Assembly: GCA_905211615.1 (NCBI GenBank)
Contig: CAJMBB010000001.1
Span: forward strand, 1-38,443
Direction: 5' to 3'
Source of the DNA: an uncultured Collinsella sp.
GTDB taxonomy: Bacteria > Actinomycetota > Coriobacteriia > Coriobacteriales > Coriobacteriaceae
DNA length: 38,443 nt
Position 1 is the first letter of the stretch. The number at the start of each line of letters is the position of its first letter. Under the pieces are notes generated by a model, which did not search any database, had not been told where the DNA came from, and was given only the letters and a program-made list of their open reading frames with translations. Made by a program: the position numbers and the translations under genes. Shown here in pieces: positions 24,427 through 33,805 of the stretch.

Positions 24427-24470
24427 AAGAACCGCCCGGAAGCACGATGCCTTCCGGGCGGTTCTTATTT
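24427..24470 (+). terminator. Terminator after ligA, possibly bidirectional
   Basis: AAGAACCGCCCGGAAG-CACGATGC-CTTCCGGGCGGTTCTT followed by ATTT. Confidence 0.85.
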
Positions 24471-24548
24471 GGACGGGGCAACCGGCACCGTGATCTGCGT
24501 CACGTAGGTCGCGGGGTCGTCGCTGACGATATTGTCGATGAGGGCGAT
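24465..24548 (-). pseudogene. 3' remnant of a probable BltR/BmrR-like MerR regulator, copy A
   Basis: Minus-strand translation IALIDNIVSDDPATYVTQITVPVAPSK* resembles a GyrI-like effector-domain C-terminus; no upstream coding part. Confidence 0.5.
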
Positions 24549-24701
24549 CCTGCGAACCGGTGCCGTCCCAGAGCGATAAGAGATTCATGCAGGGCAGAGG
24601 GACCTCACAATGACGGTTCTCCATTGCGGCGGTCTTTATATATAAACATTAACATTAACGTGTATACTTAGCAGTGAAGATATATGTTGAGAGGAGCAGT
24701 T

Positions 24702-25094
24702 ATGGTTACCGTCGCGTTTTCGGAACTGCGCCAAAACCTTACGCAGGTGGCCGAAAAGGTTGCCAATGAGGGCGAGGAGGTTGTGGTCTTCAAGCGGAGC
24801 AAGCCGTTGTTCAAGATCGTGCCGCTCGACTATCAAGGCCCGGTTGCAGTGGAATATGACGCTGCCCAGGAGCGTGGGGGCGCAAAACCGACGTGCGACA
24901 CGGGCAAGCCCAAGCGCGACGTGGGTACGATGTGGCATCCCAAGATCACCTGGAAGGAGATCCGTGAGATGCTCGCGGAGAATGAGGACTACCAGGAGTA
25001 TCTCGATATCGTGGCTAACATGCCAAAGGGAACGCCGCTCGATACGATGACGGTTGAAGATGAAAAGCGCGTCGCGAGGGAGCGCTACCTATGA
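24702..25094 (+). CDS. Phd/YefM-family antitoxin with extended C-terminus
   Basis: MVTVAFSELRQNLTQVAEKVANEGEEVVVFKRSKPLFKIVP; GAGGAG RBS; ATGA overlap with the PIN gene. Confidence 0.85.
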   Translation: MVTVAFSELRQNLTQVAEKVANEGEEVVVFKRSKPLFKIVPLDYQGPVAVEYDAAQERGGAKPTCDTGKPKRDVGTMWHPKITWKEIREMLAENEDYQEYLDIVANMPKGTPLDTMTVEDEKRVARERYL

Positions 25095-25513
25095 GGGCAT
25101 TTCTCGATACCAATTTTCTGCTCGATTGCGTGCTTCCGGGCCGGCCGGAGCACGCAGCGGCGCAAACGATCAAGGGGCTCGTTGACGTGGGGCTTATCGA
25201 GGGCGTTGTTTCGGCCTGCTCTCTCAAGGACGTGTACTACATTCTCACTAAACAGGCAGGCGAGGCGCGCGCCCGCGAGGTAGTGCGCGACTGTCTTAAG
25301 AGCTACTCGGTAGAGCCTCTCGACCAAGAAGCTTGTTTTACCTCCGCCTATTCCGATGAGCCGGACTTTGAGGACGGCTGTATCCGTGCGATGGCCGAGC
25401 GTGCCGGCGTGGACTTTATCATCACGCGTGACCGCGCCGCTTTTGTGCGCTCGACCATCAAGACCTTCTCGCCTGCAGAGTTCATCCGTGCGTTTCCGAT
25501 TCCGGAGGAGTAA
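25091..25513 (+). CDS. PIN-domain (VapC-like) toxin
   Basis: FLDTNFLLD, DFEDG and IITRD acidic motifs; translationally coupled to the antitoxin. Confidence 0.9.
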   Translation: MRAFLDTNFLLDCVLPGRPEHAAAQTIKGLVDVGLIEGVVSACSLKDVYYILTKQAGEARAREVVRDCLKSYSVEPLDQEACFTSAYSDEPDFEDGCIRAMAERAGVDFIITRDRAAFVRSTIKTFSPAEFIRAFPIPEE

Positions 25514-25794: not shown

Positions 25795-25808
25795 TTTCTG
25801 GGCGGTTC

Positions 25809-25898
25809 TTACTTTGCTGGGGCAACCGGCACCGTGATCTGCGTCACGTAGGTTGTGGGGTCGTCGCTGATGATGTCGTCGATCAGGGCGATCTCGCG
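25809..25898 (-). pseudogene. 3' remnant of a probable BltR/BmrR-like MerR regulator, copy B
   Basis: REIALIDDIISDDPTTYVTQITVPVAPAK* lies just downstream of the MATE stop; 84/94 nt identical to copy A by manual comparison. Confidence 0.5.
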
Positions 25899-25906
25899 TT
25901 GCCCCG

Positions 25907-27253
25907 CTACGCTGCCAACTTGTCAAAAGCCCCGCGCCGGTTGAGCACGGTAAACGCGATAACACAGATGACCGCCGACAGAATCGATCCGCACGGCGAG
26001 GCGATGCCCATGGGAAACAACGTATCGGAATAGGCATTCGACAGCAGCCACGCGCCCGGCACGCGAATGAGCGCCACGGCCAGCACGTTGTGCGCAAAGC
26101 CGATGTAGCTCTTGCCGTATGCAGCGAAAAAGCCGCTAAAGCAAATGTGGATGCCGGCAAAGATCGCGTCGATAATATAACTGTGCATATAGCCGGTGCC
26201 GGCGGCGACCACTGCGGGGTCCTTGGCAAAAAAGCCGATAAACGCCGGTGCCACCAGCCACATCAGCACCGTGATCAGGCAGCCGTACACCACCGAGATG
26301 GTCATGGCGTCTTTGAGTACCTGACGTGCGCGGTCGCCCTTGCCCGCGCCGGCGTTTTGCGCCGTGAGCGCGCTGACGGTGGCGCCCATGGAACTCGGCA
26401 CAATGAACAAAAAGCTGATCATCTTCTCGACCAGGCCCACGGCGGCGGCGTCGACGAGCCCTCGGTGGTTGGCGATGACGGTGATAAACATAAACGCCAC
26501 CTGGATGCAGCCGTCCTGCACGGCCACAGGCACGCCGATCTTAAGAATGCTGCCGAGCACCTCGGGCTGGGGGCGCAGGTCGCTGCGCTTAACGTGGATG
26601 TTCGTGCGGCGGCTCTTGAGCCACACGAGCGCGAGGGCAACGCTGGCCGTCTGGGCGGTTACCGTGCCGAGCGCCGCGCCCACGGGGCCGAGCCCCATGT
26701 GGCCGATAAACAGAAAGTCGAGCGCGATGTTGATGATGCATGCCACGCCGATCACGTACATAGGCGAGCGCGAATCGCCCAGGCCGCGAAAGATGGCCGA
26801 GAGGATGTTGTATGCGGCGATAAACGGAATGCCGACAAAGCAGATGCGTAGGTAGGCGGCGGTTCCTTCGACTGCCTCAGCCGGCGTGCCAATGAGTGCC
26901 ACGATCTGCGGGCACAGCGTAAGCAGGACAGCGGCCAGCACCACCGAGACACCCATAAAGAGCGTGATAGTGTTGCCGATGGCGGTCTCGGCGCGGTCGA
27001 AGCGGCGCGAGCCCACGGCGTGGCCGACGACCACCGTGGTTCCCATGGCCAGGCCCACGAGCGCCACGGTGATCATATAGAGCGTCTGCGCGCCATTTGC
27101 CACGGCGGTGATGCCGGCGGCGCCGCTAAACTGCCCCATCATGTACAGGTCGGCCATGCCGTAGAGCATCTGCAAAAAGTACGAGAGCATATAAGGCAGG
27201 GCAAAGACTGCGATGGTCTTAAGGACATTGCCGCGTGTGAGGTCGTGTTCCAT
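25907..27253 (-). CDS. MATE-family efflux transporter
   Basis: DLTRGNVLKTIAVFALP, YGMADLYMMG, FRGLGDSRSP, NIALDFLFI and QNAGAG; start reassigned to ATG 27253. Confidence 0.95.
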   Translation of the reverse strand: MEHDLTRGNVLKTIAVFALPYMLSYFLQMLYGMADLYMMGQFSGAAGITAVANGAQTLYMITVALVGLAMGTTVVVGHAVGSRRFDRAETAIGNTITLFMGVSVVLAAVLLTLCPQIVALIGTPAEAVEGTAAYLRICFVGIPFIAAYNILSAIFRGLGDSRSPMYVIGVACIINIALDFLFIGHMGLGPVGAALGTVTAQTASVALALVWLKSRRTNIHVKRSDLRPQPEVLGSILKIGVPVAVQDGCIQVAFMFITVIANHRGLVDAAAVGLVEKMISFLFIVPSSMGATVSALTAQNAGAGKGDRARQVLKDAMTISVVYGCLITVLMWLVAPAFIGFFAKDPAVVAAGTGYMHSYIIDAIFAGIHICFSGFFAAYGKSYIGFAHNVLAVALIRVPGAWLLSNAYSDTLFPMGIASPCGSILSAVICVIAFTVLNRRGAFDKLAA

Positions 27254-27288
27254 GGGCGGGGCTTTCTGGCTTGGTTCGTTTAGGTACC

Positions 27289-27324
27289 AGTGTAGTGAAA
27301 ACCCTACAACGATTGTAGAGTCAA
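27289..27324 (-). promoter_or_regulatory. MerR-type promoter/operator of the MATE gene
   Basis: Minus strand: TTGACT followed at once by the dyad CTACAA-TCG-TTGTAG; TTCACT at a 19-bp spacer and TACACT 5 bp further on. Confidence 0.7.
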
Positions 27325-27408
27325 GGTTTGTGTTGGCGGTGGGGCGAAAAAAATAGTCACGCTCCAAGCACGATGCCTTGATCTCTCCGTGCCCCTCACC
27401 TCGCCTCG

Positions 27409-27471
27409 AACCATCACAACATTCGACGTTTTTTGCCAAAAACGGGAAAAGCATCGAATGTTGTGATGGTT
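27409..27471. repeat. Palindrome family A, copy 1 (18-bp arms, 27-bp A/T-tract spacer)
   Basis: AACCATCACAACATTCGA-CGTTTTTTGCCAAAAACGGGAAAAGCA-TCGAATGTTGTGATGGTT. Confidence 0.95.
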
Positions 27472-27573
27472 TTTCTGCCACTCGACCGGGTGGAATCGCT
27501 TTCTTGTGCACGAAGGTGTGCGGACCCGTGGGCAGGGGAATAAGGTTGGTTATCCGACTCCATTGGAGGGCTC

Positions 27574-28611
27574 ATGGACCTGCCGATCGTCCTGTCCCAT
27601 AAGACTGCCTGGCTGTACCACAACGTGGCGCGCCCGTCCGAGCCGCTCTCGTGAGCAAACAGCCTATACGATGAGGAATCGCTTGCTAACGAGGCGGAAC
27701 CGACCGCGAGCCTGCCCAAATTGGGACTCGATGCCAAGGGGCTGAGGGCTTCAACGGCTGTCGGGATTGTTACCGACCATCTGGTTTCACTTGGTATTCC
27801 ACGAGAAGAGCTCGATCATATTGACACGCTCGTCAACTTTGATTTTGAGCGCTCGACGCCGGCTGGATTTAGGTGCCACGTGTTTGGAGCGCCGGTACCT
27901 CCAGACCATCTTATCGAGGTGGCAGAGGGCCTTCTGGTGGTTGATGAGGCCATGTGCTTTGTCCAAGCGGGTTCGTGGATGAGCGAGCCCGAGCAGCTGG
28001 AATATGGCTACGAAATCTGCGCCCGATACCATTTGAATCATCTGTCGACAGGCGATTATATCGAGATGGGGCAGAGGTATACCGTTGCCGACTTGATTGC
28101 CTATTGCAATGAGAACCGATCTCGTCAGGGGGCTATACGCGCGGCCGCCGTGCTCAGGCGCGTGCACGATGGCGCGCGGTCGCCCATGGAGACGGCCACC
28201 GCAATCATGGTCGTAGCAAAACGTTCCCAGGGAGGGCTGGGATACGCCAAGATCGAGCTCAACCATCGGGTCGATGTTCCCAACGAGTTCAAGTATCTCG
28301 CAAAGGCCGGGTATTTCGAGATTGACGTATATGCGCCTGCGAGCGGTACGGGGATTGAATACAACGGCTCGGACCATCTTGATAAACAGCGCAGCGCGTC
28401 GGATGCGGAGCGTATGACCGTGCTGAGCGCGCTGGGCTTTAGGGTGATCGTCCTCACCGGGACTCAGTTTGCCCACCAGCTGCAATTGCACCGGGCGATG
28501 AACGCCATCGCACTCGCTATGGGCCTTAAGTGCGACCGAAGCGAAGCGTTCCAGAAACGTCAGAACGACCTGCGAGAATTCGTGATTCGGCACTGGGACG
28601 GCGGCCTTTAG
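27574..28611 (+). pseudogene. AbiEi-like / DUF559 (Vsr-like PD-(D/E)XK) nuclease-type gene with a premature TGA at codon 27
   Basis: GGAGGG RBS and ATG 27574 are in frame with ORF 27721-28611. The protein begins MDLPIVLSHKTAW, with TGA at 27652-27654. C-terminal motifs: ARSPMET, EIDV..GIEYNGSDH, DAER..LSALGFRVIVLT. Confidence 0.7.
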
Positions 28612-28649
28612 GGACGCTTTGGTCCTTCTGCGGGGCCTGCGGGCAGGCA

Positions 28650-28711
28650 AACCATCACAACATTCGACGTTTTTTGCCAAAAACGGGAAAAGCATCGAAT
28701 GTTGTGATGGT
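28650..28711. repeat. Palindrome family A, copy 2
   Basis: 62 bp identical to 27409-27470, in the same orientation. Confidence 0.95.
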
Positions 28712-28842
28712 CTGTGTTGAGGATGGGCTCGGGAAGTACGTCTTGCTCGAAGTGGCCTGTCCTGTCGTACGGGTGTCGACCCATTCTTCCCGTGGGGTAT
28801 TATGTTTTCCGAAGAATAAAACGCCGCGTGAGGGAGGGCTGC

Positions 28843-29898
28843 GTGGACGGGCACGTGCAACATGACGGTTTTGGCCGCGACATCAACTACCTGCGCATTG
28901 CCGTTACCGACAAGTGCAATTTCCGCTGCATCTATTGCATGCCGGCCGATGGCGTGGCACCCCGCGCGCACGACGAGCTGCTCAGCGCCGAGGAGATCGC
29001 CCGCTTTGTGCGCCTGGTGACGGGGGAGGGCATTCGCCGCGTACGCCTGACGGGCGGCGAGCCGCTGGTCAGCCGCCGTATCATCCCGCTCATTCGTGAC
29101 ATCCGCGTGATTCCGCAGATCGAGGACATCTCGCTCACCACCAACGGTGCCCTGCTGCCCCAGCTGGCGCCGCAGCTCAAAGATGCCGGTCTTAACCGCG
29201 TCAACATCTCGCTCGACACACTCGACCCTACGCTCTTTGGAAAGATCACGCGTCTGGGCCGACTCGAGCAGACCATGGCTGGCATCGACGCGGCGCTGGC
29301 TTGGGGCTTTGAACCCGTTAAGGTCAACTGCGTTGTTGTGCGCCGGCTCAACCAGGACGTGGCGGCCCTCGCGCGGCTCACGCTCGACCGCCCCATCCAC
29401 CTGCGCTTTATCGAATACATGCCCATCGGCGACGAGCGCACGAGCTCGCATTGCGCTGTGGACCCGCATGCGCCCGCGCTCAATCCCGAGCTGTGGGACG
29501 CGAGCGACACCGTGCCGAGTGACGAGCTGCGGGCGCGCATCAATGCCGGGGCCGCCGCGACGGGACTGGGCGAGCTCGAGCCGCTCGACATCAACGACGC
29601 TCCTGCCGGCGCGGGCCCTGCGCGCTACTGGCACTTTCCGGGCGCGGCGGGAACGGTCGGCTTTATTAGCGCCATGTCCAACCATTTTTGCGCGAGCTGC
29701 AATCGTCTGCGCCTGACGGCCGATGGCAATGTGCGTCCGTGCCTGTTTAGCGATGCCGAGTATTCGGTGCGTGAGGCGCTGCGCCGTGGTGATGATATGC
29801 AGGTACTTTCGATTTGGCGCGATGCCGTGGCCCACAAACCGCAGGAACACGCGATAATTGAGGGCACGCAACGATTTATGTCCCAAATCGGAGGATGA
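28843..29898 (+). CDS. moaA: GTP 3',8-cyclase MoaA
   Basis: YLRIAVTDKCNFRCIYC radical SAM motif, LTGGEPL, FIEYMP, FCASCNRLRLT..CL and terminal MSQIGG; GTG start after GGAGGG. Confidence 0.96.
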   Translation: MDGHVQHDGFGRDINYLRIAVTDKCNFRCIYCMPADGVAPRAHDELLSAEEIARFVRLVTGEGIRRVRLTGGEPLVSRRIIPLIRDIRVIPQIEDISLTTNGALLPQLAPQLKDAGLNRVNISLDTLDPTLFGKITRLGRLEQTMAGIDAALAWGFEPVKVNCVVVRRLNQDVAALARLTLDRPIHLRFIEYMPIGDERTSSHCAVDPHAPALNPELWDASDTVPSDELRARINAGAAATGLGELEPLDINDAPAGAGPARYWHFPGAAGTVGFISAMSNHFCASCNRLRLTADGNVRPCLFSDAEYSVREALRRGDDMQVLSIWRDAVAHKPQEHAIIEGTQRFMSQIGG

Positions 29899-29902
29899 TC
29901 AT

Positions 29903-31207
29903 ATGGCCAAGAGCAGGTACGCCGATGCCACCAAGGCCGCTCGCAGGGCCGCGATGTCTGCCCACAAAGTCACGGCTGCGGCGAATGCTGGCAACGCCGA
30001 CGCGTCCGCACAGCCGACTGCCAGCGCTGCCGCCGAGCCCGCCCGCGACGCCCGTCGCGACGAGCTGACGCACGTGGACGCCAAGGGCGAGGTGCGCATG
30101 GTCGACGTGTCCGACAAGGCCGAGACCCATCGCATTGCCATCGCCGAAGGCACCATCCTCATGCACCCCGAGACGCAGGCCATGGTGCTGCAAGACCGCG
30201 CCAAGAAGGGCGACGTGCTTGCCTGCGCGCGCGTGGCGGGCATTATGGCCATCAAGCGCACGAGCGACATCATCCCCATGTGCCATCCGTTGCTCATTAC
30301 CAAGAGCAAGTGCGACATTGCGCCCATCGCTCCGGCGGGGACGCCGGCCGAGGACGTGCCCGAGGGCTGGGCGCCGGCGCGTGCGGACGGGCAGGTTGGC
30401 TTTCACGTGTTGGTCACGGCGGGCGTGACGGGCAAGACGGGTATCGAGATGGAGGCCCTGACCGGCGCGAGTGCCGCGTGCCTAACAATCTATGACATGT
30501 GCAAGGCGGTCGATCGCGGCATGGAGATCGTCGACGTTCGCCTGCTGCACAAGGAGGGCGGCCGCTCGGGTGTGTGGGATCGTGCAGAGCGCCAGGCCGC
30601 TGCTGTTGAGGCCGTGGCCGCTGACGGTGCCGCGCCCGCGAGCGCACCCGTCGCCGTTGCGTCCGCAGCTCCGGCACCGGCCGTCCCCGCGATCGCGTTT
30701 ATCGGCTACCAAAACTCGGGCAAGACCACGCTCGTCGAGAAGGTTATCGCCGAGCTCACCCGCCGCGGCCTGCGCGTGGGTTCGCTCAAGCATCATGGGC
30801 ATCACGGCTTTGATATCGACGTGCCCGCTAAGGATACCTGGCGCCATCACCAGGCCGGATCCAAGCACGTGGGCCTCATCTGCGCCACGCGCTGGGCGGA
30901 GTACGCCGACACGCGCGAGGAGGACGAGATGCCCGCGCGTGAGCTGCTGTCGCGCTACAACGATGTCGACGTGGTGATCATCGAGGGCTACAAGACCGAG
31001 GGCTTCGACAACATCGTGGTCGCGCGCTCTGGTGTCGACCGTCTGCGCGGCAAGAGCTCGCTCGACCTGGTCGACGGTCACACGCTGGCCCTTGCCTGCA
31101 ACGAGGCCCTGGCGCGTCAGGCCTTCGACGCCGGCTTTGCGACCCGAGCCATCAACATCAACGACGCCCGAGCTATCTGCGATCTGATTCAGGACCATCT
31201 GGCCTAA
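29903..31207 (+). CDS. moaC: MoaC-MobB fusion protein
   Basis: MoaC motifs LTHVD..MVDVSDK, KKGDVL, IPMCHPL, TGIEMEAL and IYDMCKAVD; an Ala/Pro linker; then MobB motifs GYQNSGKTT, LKHHGHHGFDID and IIEGYK. Confidence 0.92.
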   Translation: MAKSRYADATKAARRAAMSAHKVTAAANAGNADASAQPTASAAAEPARDARRDELTHVDAKGEVRMVDVSDKAETHRIAIAEGTILMHPETQAMVLQDRAKKGDVLACARVAGIMAIKRTSDIIPMCHPLLITKSKCDIAPIAPAGTPAEDVPEGWAPARADGQVGFHVLVTAGVTGKTGIEMEALTGASAACLTIYDMCKAVDRGMEIVDVRLLHKEGGRSGVWDRAERQAAAVEAVAADGAAPASAPVAVASAAPAPAVPAIAFIGYQNSGKTTLVEKVIAELTRRGLRVGSLKHHGHHGFDIDVPAKDTWRHHQAGSKHVGLICATRWAEYADTREEDEMPARELLSRYNDVDVVIIEGYKTEGFDNIVVARSGVDRLRGKSSLDLVDGHTLALACNEALARQAFDAGFATRAININDARAICDLIQDHLA

Positions 31208-31246
31208 AACCTGCCAAAAAGGGACAGGTTTGTTTTGGCAGGTTTT
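31206..31246. terminator. Hairpin after moaC-mobB with a GGGACAGG loop; terminator or REP-like element
   Basis: AAAACCTGCCAAAA-AGGGACAGGTTTG-TTTTGGCAGGTTTT. Confidence 0.65.
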
Positions 31247-31265
31247 ATCTGGGCAAACGTCATTT

Positions 31266-31298
31266 CCACCACAGAGGGGCCAGGCTTCTTTGTGATGG
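31266..31298 (+). repeat. REP-like hairpin family B, copy 2
   Basis: CCACCACAGAGGGGCCAGGCTTCTTTGTGATGG followed by TTTTTGCTTTGG. Confidence 0.7.
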
Positions 31299-31472
31299 TT
31301 TTTGCTTTGGTAGATGTGTGGGACATGCCTTACAATCTACCAAGTAGTTCATGACGGGCGAAAAACGGAGAGAAGGGGCTTGATGCGTCCTTAATGTTTC
31401 ATGCGGATAGATTGATTTGACAGACGGTGGCGAATGCTCGCCGCCCGTATTCGTATGAAACAAGGAGTCTCC

Positions 31473-32759
31473 ATGCTCTTCTCTCTTTTCTCAAAGCCTC
31501 AATCATCGCTGTCCGCGCAGGCCAAGCGCCTAGTGGCGATGCGCTTTCTCATTTACACCGGTTTTCAGACCAGCTACTTTATCGGCGTCATCGGAACGCT
31601 CACCTATGCAGACGATGCATCGGTCGTGGCGACATCGCTGGCCGTCCTTTTTATGAACGTATTCGTGATCTTGGGGTCCTTTGCGGGCGGCGCGGCGCTC
31701 GACGCCTGGGGCCCGCGCCGTCATTTCTTGCTGAGCATCGTCGGCACGCTGGCGACGGGTGCGGCGATCCTCGTTTTTGGCAGCGCGACCGGCATCGTCC
31801 TGCTCGGCGCGGTGCTCCTGGGCTTTGTGATGGGGTTCGCCCAGCCCATCGCCACATCCTATCCAGCCTACCTCACCGACGATCCTGTCGAGCTCAAAGG
31901 TATCAACTCCGCCATCGCCATGTTTTCAAACGTGAGTATCATCGTTGGCCCCACGCTGGGCGGCTTTGTCGCGGCGGCTACATCGTCACGCGCGGTGTTC
32001 GTGCTCATGATGATTTTTACCGTACTGGCGCTCATTGCCGGCTGGGGCTTTAGGCAAAGTGCGGGTCAGGCCGCCACACACGAAGGCAAACCCGCGCCCG
32101 GCGACATCACATCGGATAAGGCCAGCCAAAGCCCCGACCCCAACACGTCCTCCCGCGCAACCTTCGCGACCAGCATCAAGACAGTCTTTACCAACAGCGT
32201 TCTCGCCCTACTGTTCTGCATCATCTTTCTTTCGAACTTCGGCTATGGCGCCTTTGACCCGCTGGAGTCGTTCTTCTACCGCGATGTTCTGCATGTCGGT
32301 GTCGAGTGGATGGGCTGGCTCTCGTCGGCCTGCGGCGTGGGCGCGGTGCTGGGCGCTGTGGCCGCGCTCCGCTTGCCGCCGCACCTGGTCAACCTTAAAA
32401 CGCTGCTCGTGGCGCTCATGTCCGTGGGCCTGGGAAGTTTGCTCTATGTGGGGACACCGTACGTGGGCGTAGCCCTTGTCGGTCAGATTGCCCTGGGCGT
32501 GGCCTGGGGCGTCGTCAACCCGCTCCACAACACGATCGTGCAAACAACGGCCCCGCTCGAGCAACTCGGGCGCGTCAACTCGGTCATGGGCTTTGGCAAT
32601 ATGTTCGCCGGCGTGGCGCCGCTGGCGATTGCCCCGTGGCTGGCGGCGACATTTGGCGTACAGCGGACACTCGTGGGGGCAGGCATGGTCGTGACGGCGG
32701 TCCCTGCGGCGTTGCTGCTGTTTGGACGCCGGCATTTGGATCGTGCCGCAAGGCAGTAA
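31473..32759 (+). CDS. MFS transporter, probably efflux type
   Basis: About 12 TM segments, motif A-like GAALDAWGPRR and LGRVNSV; ATG 31473 follows AAGGAG. Confidence 0.9.
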   Translation: MLFSLFSKPQSSLSAQAKRLVAMRFLIYTGFQTSYFIGVIGTLTYADDASVVATSLAVLFMNVFVILGSFAGGAALDAWGPRRHFLLSIVGTLATGAAILVFGSATGIVLLGAVLLGFVMGFAQPIATSYPAYLTDDPVELKGINSAIAMFSNVSIIVGPTLGGFVAAATSSRAVFVLMMIFTVLALIAGWGFRQSAGQAATHEGKPAPGDITSDKASQSPDPNTSSRATFATSIKTVFTNSVLALLFCIIFLSNFGYGAFDPLESFFYRDVLHVGVEWMGWLSSACGVGAVLGAVAALRLPPHLVNLKTLLVALMSVGLGSLLYVGTPYVGVALVGQIALGVAWGVVNPLHNTIVQTTAPLEQLGRVNSVMGFGNMFAGVAPLAIAPWLAATFGVQRTLVGAGMVVTAVPAALLLFGRRHLDRAARQ

Positions 32760-32824
32760 AAACCATCACAACATTCGATGAAAATCGCGATTTTGCCGAA
32801 AAACGTCGAATGTTGTGATGGTTT
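32760..32824. repeat. Palindrome family A, copy 3 (solo, spacer inverted and diverged)
   Basis: Same arms as copies 1 and 2. The reverse complement of its 27-nt spacer, CGTTTTTCGGCAAAATCGCGATTTTCA, matches their spacer at 19/27 positions. Confidence 0.92.
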
Positions 32825-32856
32825 GCGCTGCGGGTCAGGCCATCCTGCGGGCCAGG

Positions 32857-32889
32857 CCACCACAAAGGGGCCAGGCACCTTTGTGGTGG
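32857..32889 (+). repeat. REP-like hairpin family B, copy 3
   Basis: CCACCACAAAGGGGCCAGGCACCTTTGTGGTGG followed by TTTTTGCTTTGG. Confidence 0.75.
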
Positions 32890-32983
32890 TTTTTGCTTTG
32901 GCGGGCCGCGCCCGTGCCTTGGTATACCATGTACGCCGTTCACGAATACACCCCACACCGCCGCACAACCCAGAAAGGCCCCC

Positions 32984-33805
32984 ATGGACACCACCTTCAG
33001 CCACATTAAAGCCGTGTTCTGCGATATCGACGGCACGCTGCTCACGAGCCAGCACACGGTGTCCCCGCGCACCGTGGCGGCGATCCGCGCCCTGCGCGAG
33101 CGCGGCGTGCTGTTTGGCCTGTGCACCGGGCGCGACGCCCACGCGACCGAGGCCATGTACAAGCTCTGGGGCATCGAAGGCCTGGTAGACGTGATGGTGG
33201 GCTGCGGTGGCGCTGAGGTCATCGACCGCGCGCACGACATCAACGAGCTGAGCTATCCGCTGCCGGGCGAGACCATCGCGCGCATCTGCAAGCACATGGC
33301 GGACCTTCCGGCAACGCCCGTCTGCCCCCGAGACGGCGTGTTCTACGTGCCCGAGAGCAACGCGTGCGTCGAGCACCTGTCGCGCGTCGACGGCGTGCCC
33401 TACCAGGTGGTCGATTTTGCCGAGTTTTTGCGCGAGCCGCAGCCCAAGGTGATGTTTACCATGGCGCCCGAGGTAATGCCGCGGGTGATTGAGCGAGCAT
33501 CGACGTTTGCCGACGACACCGTCAAGGCGGCGGCTCTGCAAACCACGCAGCGGCTCTACGAGTTCATGGATCCGCGCGTGTCCAAGACGCGCGGCCTTGT
33601 GCGCGTGGCGGAGCTCAACGACATGGAGCTCCAGGACATCTGTGTGTTTGGCGATGCGGACAACGACACCTGCATGGTGGCTGACGCCGGCGTGGGCGTG
33701 GCCATGGCAAACGGCAGCGACGCCACCCGTGCCGCCGCCGACTTTGTAACCGCGAGCAACGACAAAGACGGCATTGCGATCTTTGTCGAGGAACATCTGC
33801 TGTAG
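32984..33805 (+). CDS. Cof-type HAD-IIB hydrolase
   Basis: DIDGTLL, CTGR, VSKTRGL, FGDADND and GVAMAN. Confidence 0.93.
   Translation: MDTTFSHIKAVFCDIDGTLLTSQHTVSPRTVAAIRALRERGVLFGLCTGRDAHATEAMYKLWGIEGLVDVMVGCGGAEVIDRAHDINELSYPLPGETIARICKHMADLPATPVCPRDGVFYVPESNACVEHLSRVDGVPYQVVDFAEFLREPQPKVMFTMAPEVMPRVIERASTFADDTVKAAALQTTQRLYEFMDPRVSKTRGLVRVAELNDMELQDICVFGDADNDTCMVADAGVGVAMANGSDATRAAADFVTASNDKDGIAIFVEEHLL

Follow-up and report, generated by a model that had tools for sequence, protein, structure and literature searches.

DUF559/Vsr-like nuclease genes bracketed by private palindromes in Collinsella: a candidate resident cassette of REP/RAYT-like organization

Repetitive extragenic palindromic (REP) sequences and their REP-associated tyrosine transposases (RAYTs) form the described system to which the locus reported here comes closest. 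In such systems, a gene that is single-copy and inherited vertically has its own palindromic repeat on both sides, further copies of which lie in other intergenic regions, and each gene lineage has a repeat of its own. The same arrangement is found in an uncultured Collinsella sp., on a 38,443-nt stretch of contig CAJMBB010000001.1 (hereafter the window; assembly GCA_905211615.1, a 1.99-Mb draft in 224 contigs), where a single gene stands between two identical copies of a 62-nt palindrome that we call P1 (Table 1). The differences are that the enzyme is here a predicted Vsr/DUF559-type PD-(D/E)xK nuclease and there an HUH Y1 transposase, that the repeat population comprises 2–7 copies here and tens to hundreds there, and that the elements here are longer and bipartite, with two arms around a 13–150-bp spacer and full copies on both sides of the gene. 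A first-pass annotation of the window, made from the sequence alone, had drawn the parallel to RAYT genes; what survives of it is the private flanking palindrome of each lineage, while a Y1 transposase and a large repeat population are missing. By analogy, the best-supported reading is thus of a cassette that would work like REP/RAYT but stand outside that family, and we see roughly an even chance that the nuclease and its cognate palindrome constitute such a resident cassette, with the palindromes as predicted sites of excision, insertion and inversion.

In structure, the nuclease domain comes closest to homing endonucleases of the EDxHD/I-Bth0305I type. I-Bth0305I itself is described as a multidomain homodimer with a ~60-bp footprint on a pseudopalindromic site (PMC3239194), and this footprint is similar in size to P1. 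A further likeness is the precise presence/absence polymorphism of the gene, which we describe below. Unlike homing endonuclease genes, however, the gene studied here is chromosomal and intergenic and does not reside in an intron, intein or phage, its putative target is duplicated intact on both sides, and no spread to new sites was seen.

Integron attC and dif/pdif modules offer another comparison, as they consist of single genes, each followed by its own imperfect palindrome, include genes of the toxin-antitoxin, Fic and nuclease kinds, and are inserted and excised at the palindrome. The cassettes described here differ from them in being scattered singly rather than in arrays, and in having perfect arms that are much longer than Xer sites. 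An attC-type reading of P1 was considered and set aside, the core motifs of attC not being apparent by eye, and no integron integrase was found among the 12 open reading frames (ORFs) scanned between 17 and 38 kb of the window, the rest of the genome not having been searched for one. AbiEi antitoxins of type IV toxin-antitoxin systems act on inverted repeats, and the C-terminal domain of AbiEi aligns weakly with residues 1–198 of the window protein. In contrast to AbiEi systems, the window protein has no Pfam match to that family and no winged helix-turn-helix (wHTH), and no gene for an AbiEii (nucleotidyltransferase) toxin lies inside the bracket or next to it.

Vsr endonucleases are accompanied by a cytosine methyltransferase. 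They share with DUF559 proteins (PF04480; NGO0050, PDB 3hrl) and with the window protein the fold and the motifs D / E-x-x-G-x-x-H / D-x-x-R. The window gene differs from Vsr in having no cytosine methyltransferase neighbour, and its product from DUF559 in falling below the family cut-off and in carrying a 200-residue N-terminal part outside the DUF559 region. In one study, DUF559 proteins are reported as enriched among predicted programmed inversions (odds ratio 14.3; PMC9881135), which fits the presence of inverted arms around the genes described here. In the literature searched, which included few subscription journals, we found neither a bracketing of DUF559/Vsr-like genes by palindromes described nor such repeats in Collinsella or other Coriobacteriia.

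The bracketed gene and its palindromes

The two P1 copies around the gene are direct repeats with 100% identity, their starts 1241 nt apart. Each copy is itself palindromic, with perfect arms of 18 nt in the left, 17 nt in the right and 19 nt in a third copy, and the 27-nt spacer, with its T6, A5 and A4 tracts, has the same orientation in both bracketing copies. The first-pass annotation had described this geometry correctly, as it had the position of the gene between the MATE and moaA genes. The 17-mer of the arm matches the window six times, two of these matches falling in the third copy (0.06 expected, and none of 100 shuffles reached six), and folding of P1 as single-stranded DNA gave −24.4 kcal/mol (z −6.46), a value equalled by none of 200 shuffles. 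Counted over the whole draft genome, there are five P1 elements, three in the window, among them a solo copy that had previously been overlooked, and two on other contigs, with 8 exact arm matches and 10 at up to one mismatch. The solo copy in the window is 87% identical to the other two and begins 2 nt past the stop codon of a major facilitator superfamily (MFS) transporter gene, a position common to other Collinsella genomes. An Rfam scan of positions 27000–33200 returned no family for P1, the hairpins giving only chance-level microRNA matches (E 0.15–0.87).

The arms of P1 are under constraint. In a set of 40 copies (36 distinct), 98.1% of the 684 arm cells pair, three pairs are changed on both sides, and the observed covariation score was matched by none of 500 shuffles; the arm variants CGTCCC/GGGACG and CGTCAC/GTGACG, for example, change jointly in both arms. 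Compensatory changes keep the arms complementary. Spacer variants, for their part, are shuffled between left and right copies across the 18 genomes tabulated. In 17 of these the two copies differ by about 1–10 nt, mostly 1–5 in the spacer, and only in the source genome are they identical, which fits a recent conversion.

The gene between the palindromes, the only one there, is a single reading frame interrupted by one in-frame TGA at codon 27. A product whose translation restarted past this stop would lack the invariant N-terminal LSHxTAWL motif, the next in-frame start being a TTG at 27721. Among the Collinsella orthologs listed, four have an in-frame stop. At codon 27, all four of the sequencing runs compared differ from the window, so that the stop is either a nonsense allele private to the source assembly or an assembly or sequencing error. 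The runs examined (24) consist of assembled contigs, which are unable to show transcript ends and which break at or near the palindromes because these are repeats; the gene is covered by RNA-library contigs in three runs, which come from three studies, and one such contig, of 1057 nt, spans 27555–28611, which hints at transcription weakly at most. In a promoter and terminator scan, the region upstream of the gene gave no sigma-70-like promoter and the palindromes gave no terminator.

The interrupted frame, the draft state of the genome with its many contigs, and the fact that full identity of the two copies is confined to one genome among those tabulated might together suggest that we are looking at a local duplication or an assembly artefact, namely two identical repeats around an ordinary pseudogene. 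We regard this as very improbable, since the cross-genome data contradict it: about 20 other Collinsella genomes have this bracket too, brackets recur around other paralogs and in other genera, the arm matches lie far above those of shuffled sequences, and a 345-residue ortholog is encoded in 127 of 151 Collinsella genomes (two of these partial at contig ends). The orthologs are mostly 94–98% identical to the query, with 84% as the lowest value listed. Over 78 pairs from 13 genomes, four further genomes having been dropped for incomplete or gapped matches, the median ratio of nonsynonymous to synonymous substitution rates is 0.124, as compared to 0.066 for moaA, and the nuclease gene is under purifying selection.

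Table 1. Positions and properties of the palindromes, the nuclease gene, its immediate neighbours and further bracketed genes of the source genome. Unless a contig is named, coordinates are those of the window.
Feature	Position	Strand	Description
MatE gene	25910..27253	-	left neighbour
Left P1 copy	27409..27470	.	arms 18 nt (ACCATCACAACATTCGA core), 27-nt A/T-tract spacer; ends 103 nt before start codon
Leader, 103 nt	27471..27573	+	left palindrome to start codon; GGAGGG at 27565-27570 just before ATG
Nuclease gene	27574..28611	+	345-residue protein; one in-frame stop in source genome
In-frame TGA, codon 27	27652..27654	+	sense codon in orthologs
Right P1 copy	28650..28711	.	identical to left, same spacer orientation; begins 38 nt after stop codon
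MoaA gene	28843..29895		right neighbour
Solo P1 copy	32762..32822	.	same arms as bracketing copies, different spacer in opposite orientation
P1 element	window locus		62 nt
P2 element	contig C12		about 61-69 nt, arms GTACAyCACCCTCCAAA
P3 element	contig C52		about 205 bp, 24-27-nt arms
P4 element	contig C38		about 120 bp
Fic gene	G000 contig C38:13632-15140 (L137)		own low-copy palindrome on both sides; geometry as in the nuclease cassettes
AAA_14/DUF4143 ATPase gene	C68:99-1499 (L138)		own low-copy palindrome on both sides; upstream copy ends ~27 bp before start
Y1_Tnp gene (IS200-like, RAYT-type)	C165:88-1380 (L136)		palindromic repeat AAACCTGCCAAAA... on both sides, 114 arm matches in genome

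Fold, family and brackets

The protein carries the conserved motifs LSHxTAWL, SPME, D-x9-IEYNGxxH and DAER...LGF, which the first-pass annotation had singled out, and S-P-x-E, D251, E262-Y-x-G-x-x-H268 and D277-x-E-R280, which the window copy retains, do not vary in either of two alignments; by analogy with other nucleases, the conserved D, E and H residues may be catalytic. Against Pfam, only DUF559 (15.6–15.9 bits, E 0.012–0.015, with a cut-off of 20.6 bits) and MTES_1575 appear, both below threshold. DUF559 is nevertheless matched at E≤0.1 by 17 of 19 close homologs (best 1.9e-6), and its cut-off is passed by three of ten distant relatives (P0135, 31.5 bits; P0150, 28.4; P0200, 22.5). An AlphaFold (AF2) model (predicted local distance difference test score 84, predicted template modelling score 0.86) was compared with known structures in an exhaustive VIA search, in which residues 202–318 aligned with I-Bth0305I (3r3p_B; Z 9.9, root-mean-square deviation 2.5, 95 aligned residues), the DUF559 protein 3hrl_A (Z 9.7) and Vsr (1cw0_A; Z 9.0). 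As judged from this model, the C-terminal part, approximately residues 202–318, has a PD-(D/E)xK nuclease fold of the Vsr/DUF559/I-Bth0305I type. Foldseek with the whole model returned nothing from the PDB at E≤0.001, and a profile search of PDB sequences returned 3hrl_A alone, at E 0.36.

The N-terminal part (residues 1–198) of the model weakly resembles the C-terminal domain of AbiEi, aligning with residues 64–195 of the Streptococcus agalactiae protein (6y8q_A) at the middling Z of 6.6 over 121 residues. No AbiEi family of Pfam matched the window protein or its 18 homologs, NCBIfam gave no match, no wHTH was detected, and PADLOC reported AbiEi for one relative only (E 0.015). Of the proposal that the protein combines an AbiEi-like with a DUF559/Vsr-like part, the nuclease half is therefore borne out, while the AbiEi half is reduced to, at most, this likeness to a C-terminal domain. 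Pfam gave no match to Y1_Tnp or any other transposase family. A prediction of the homodimer from two copies scored 0.35 against a mark of 0.42 and was used as evidence neither way.

At E≤0.001 the family comprises 2397 representative clusters (50% identity). Of the 121 Coriobacteriia genomes sampled, 54 contain it, with up to 13 copies per genome; these belong to four families within a single order, and the distant representatives collected for the family were again from Coriobacteriia.

Six family members were found in the source genome in a hidden Markov model search. At E≤1e-6, and with non-overlapping ORFs of at least 150 residues as controls, four of the six share a palindromic repeat between their two flanks, as opposed to 10 of 1059 other ORFs (Fisher p 2.8e-7), and most of these ten are flanked by abundant hairpin families. 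The four bracketed members have four different elements (P1 to P4 in Table 1), present in this genome in 5, about 4–5, 2 and 2–4 copies, respectively. No flank repeat was found in this test for the remaining two paralogs, on contigs C88 and C150; a palindrome ~360 bp past the stop of the C88 ORF (~570 bp past the matched region) looks like an operator of the next gene. The architecture extends beyond the source genome, with 13 of 28 family loci bracketed in five near-complete Collinsella genomes (weak hits included), where orthologs have the same element as in the source genome, and 13 of 40 bracketed at E≤1e-6 in eight genomes of other Coriobacteriales genera, where each element is different, with arms of 24–34 nt and spacers of about 70–130 bp; these cross-species counts include orthologs from related species several times and so are not independent. 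In two of the other-genus genomes, 7 of 23 family loci and 1 of 102 control ORFs were bracketed (p 2.2e-5), and further family loci were bracketed in 3 of 9 and 1 of 5 cases. In line with what the first-pass annotation anticipated, the bracket architecture is enriched in this nuclease family and each protein lineage has one palindrome family: of the 378 pairs formed by 28 bracketed loci, 8 share upstream DNA, all of them orthologs with at least 85% protein identity.

Other genes are bracketed too. In the source genome the Fic gene (1 of 1), one of four AAA_14/DUF4143 genes and one of two Y1 transposase genes have brackets of similar geometry (Table 1). For the bracketed Y1 transposase gene a REP/RAYT arrangement was to be expected, so that it provides the bracket method with a positive control; its locus on C165 is likely a true REP/RAYT system in Collinsella. 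As a separate observation, palindrome families with many more members are found genome-wide, with 51 arm matches for AGTTGCGGTGrAATA, 69 for TCTyrATCTGTAACA and 272 for TTGGGGACGTTC.

These brackets bring up the most serious competitor to a nuclease-palindrome cassette, in which the palindromes are independent elements of REP- or miniature inverted-repeat transposable element (MITE)-like nature, or recombination hot spots, that something other than the nuclease moves or maintains, for instance the recombination machinery of the host or a different enzyme, and in which small accessory genes, among them the nuclease gene, are cargo caught between two copies. The bracketed Fic, ATPase and transposase genes speak for it, as do the Phd/PIN gene pair of the window, which is flanked by 94-bp direct repeats of its own, and the many palindrome families of the genome, some with 51–272 arm matches. 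We consider it perhaps half as probable as the cassette, because the enrichment is specific to the protein family in both comparisons made against control ORFs and holds across genera with unrelated palindromes, because the bracketing families are low-copy (2–5 elements), which makes chance flanking unlikely, because no two protein lineages have an element in common, and because even very diverged paralogs keep a constant geometry.

This geometry consists in an upstream element that ends about 100–240 bp before the start codon and a downstream element that starts anywhere between 28 bp inside the reading frame and about 90 bp past the stop. Such fixed positions would also be expected if the palindromes were cis-regulatory, the upstream copy acting as an operator or promoter element to which a potentially toxic nuclease would bind to regulate its own gene, the downstream copy as a second operator or as a terminator or insulator, and solo copies as further binding sites. 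AbiEi autoregulates via inverted repeats, and the weak likeness of the N-terminal part to AbiEi, the compensatory maintenance of symmetric arms, the phased A/T tracts in the spacer, which suggest bent DNA, and the stable copy number and positions all accord with regulation. Operators, however, are not usually laid out as full duplicates to the left and right of a gene, no wHTH or AbiEi family was detected, the scan called neither promoter-like nor terminator-like sites at the elements, solo sites occupy unrelated intergenic contexts, and the break points of deletions, inversions and presence/absence variants fall exactly at the elements. A purely regulatory role therefore seems rather unlikely to us, more so than a cargo role.

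Rearrangement at the P1 and P2 loci

At the P1 locus, a solo form in which the left flank, one P1 copy and the right flank are joined is present in 10 of 401 Collinsella genomes, with no instance of a reversed-pattern control. Five of the ten belong to the 151 genomes surveyed for orthologs, and all five are without one. Invariance of the locus across strains would have counted against the first-pass annotation, which had also suggested looking for strains with a single palindrome in it. On the moaA tree, solo and occupied genomes are intermingled (the solo genome G337, for example, has the occupied G005 as its sister, support 99/96), so that the state of the locus has changed several times. 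The simplest reading is that solo sites arose by loss, via recombination between the direct copies; gain is also possible. One genome (G016) has neither gene nor palindrome at the locus and, in their place, 73 unrelated bp.

To the left of the palindromes, most Collinsella genomes have two ABC exporter genes (~3.9 kb; L024:3654-7374), located between the left P1 copy and the promoter region of MatE, which the source genome and four others do not have. The break point lies ~45 bp to the left of the palindrome (window about 27352–27367), the same place as that of the replaced block of G016.

The P2 paralog, whose locus adjoins two tRNA-Ser genes, shows a larger variety of forms. Among 61 Collinsella genomes, 57 of which had a match, it is in the forward form in about 8 genomes plus the source genome, inverted relative to the conserved flanks in 17, with break points inside the palindromes, reduced to a single palindrome in about 11, and empty, without palindrome, in about 16. 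Deletion and inversion break points thus lie inside the palindromes. No clear target-site duplication was seen at solo P1 copies or at the solo and empty P2 junctions, where the palindromic ends are ambiguous. Two side observations concern this locus. In G005 (contigs C40 and C91), an empty P2 site and a cassette are both joined to the same right flank, reflecting a strain mixture or a duplication. In addition, a ~200-bp segment (C12:10564-10773; L142:565-774) lies between a hairpin and the left P2 copy in forward-type genomes and is missing from G046; its ends resemble inverted repeats (GGAGGGAT...ATCCCTCC), and ARAGORN calls no tRNA in it.

The architecture of the bracketed loci in Coriobacteriales, of which the window locus is one instance, consists of a palindromic element, 100–240 bp of leader, the nuclease gene (~320–400 residues), about 0–90 bp and a second copy of the element, where each element comprises two inverted arms of 17–46 bp, separated by a spacer of A/T tracts that measures from 13 to about 150 bp. 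On the reading that we favour, the protein would recognize both arms of its own element and cut or nick there, and this would lead to recombination between copies, whereby the unit of gene plus one palindrome could be excised to leave a single palindrome, re-inserted at one, or inverted. Overall, nuclease and palindrome would form a PD-(D/E)xK analogue of REP/RAYT. Binding or cutting of the palindrome by the protein is our inference, and so is the view that the protein, and not host recombination, drives the rearrangements. A stronger version, according to which these loci represent a new class of recombination cassettes of the Coriobacteriales, in which a dedicated nuclease recognizes its private bipartite palindrome and causes its own gene to be inserted, excised and inverted there, appears to us possible at best, and somewhat doubtful; under it, the large DUF559-related family would gain its first function, and in the Fic and AAA/DUF4143 brackets we may be seeing the same system with cargo.

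Several observations weigh against such a cassette, at least in an active form. P1 is found in 138 of the 151 Collinsella genomes, at 2–7 copies each (mode 5) with no bursts, its copies lie at conserved, syntenic places across species, and the nuclease gene is single-copy and at one locus wherever examined; the three other bracketed paralogs of the source genome are also syntenic, and in the cross-species synteny comparison the gene was not seen to have transposed to any other site. The module in Collinsella is hence resident and not proliferating, with one gene copy, a fixed locus and few palindromes at fixed sites, and the selfish spread of hairpins envisaged in the first-pass annotation finds no support in these data, nor does mobility of the gene, which is under purifying selection. 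Host recombination between 62–69-bp repeats could alone yield the solo and inverted forms. The P2 cassettes in inverted orientation are about 83% identical to the source copy and those in forward orientation 89–93%, so orientation tracks sequence type, which suggests one or few old inversions rather than frequent flipping. About 60% of the family loci examined have no detectable bracket (2 of 6, 15 of 28 and 27 of 40), the bracket counts across species are not independent, as noted above, and the analogy to homing suffers from the putative target being left intact on both sides by the insertion, unlike in classical homing.

The co-occurrence of gene and palindrome bears on the cargo explanation in particular. 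All 13 genomes without P1 are also without the ortholog, and none has the ortholog without P1. Eleven genomes, on the other side, keep P1 and have no ortholog, and empty P2 sites without any palindrome imply that the palindrome itself comes and goes, both of which are points for independent elements. With palindromes persisting in the absence of the gene, and with Fic, AAA_14/DUF4143 and Y1 transposase genes bracketed as well, the palindromes may not need the nuclease.

Genomic neighbourhood and implications

The wider region around the cassette is of housekeeping character, with glnA, ligA, an htrA-like gene and moaC/mobB, and, in agreement with the first-pass annotation, a scan of 12 ORFs (17–38 kb of the window) revealed neither a transposase nor an integrase. 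Antisense to the nuclease gene and moaA there is an open frame of 699 codons (27787–29886, minus strand); it is most likely a high-G+C artefact and displaced the nuclease gene in the simple ORF filter. Between ligA and the MatE gene lies a Phd/YefM antitoxin and PIN toxin pair (24684–25513), whose 94-bp direct repeats (24456–24549 and 25800–25893) are 89% identical and which represents another cassette-like insertion. On either side of the MFS gene, at 31266–31310 and 32857–32901, lies a copy of a terminator-like hairpin (CCACCACAAAGG...CCTTTGTGGTGG, then a T run), whose family has 148 arm matches in the genome.

Should the palindromes prove independent of the nucleases, they would still map recombination hot spots that bracket accessory genes. 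The link to private palindromes provides the DUF559-type proteins, a very large group, with a concrete hypothesis, namely that a cognate site lies beside each gene. If this is true, it would offer natural nucleases with long targets, of about 40–60 bp, that are of interest as tools, and it would explain the recurrent gain, loss and inversion of genes in Collinsella, a common genus of the gut. If the nuclease acts on its palindrome, it would constitute a second, mechanistically different solution to a partnership of the REP/RAYT type.

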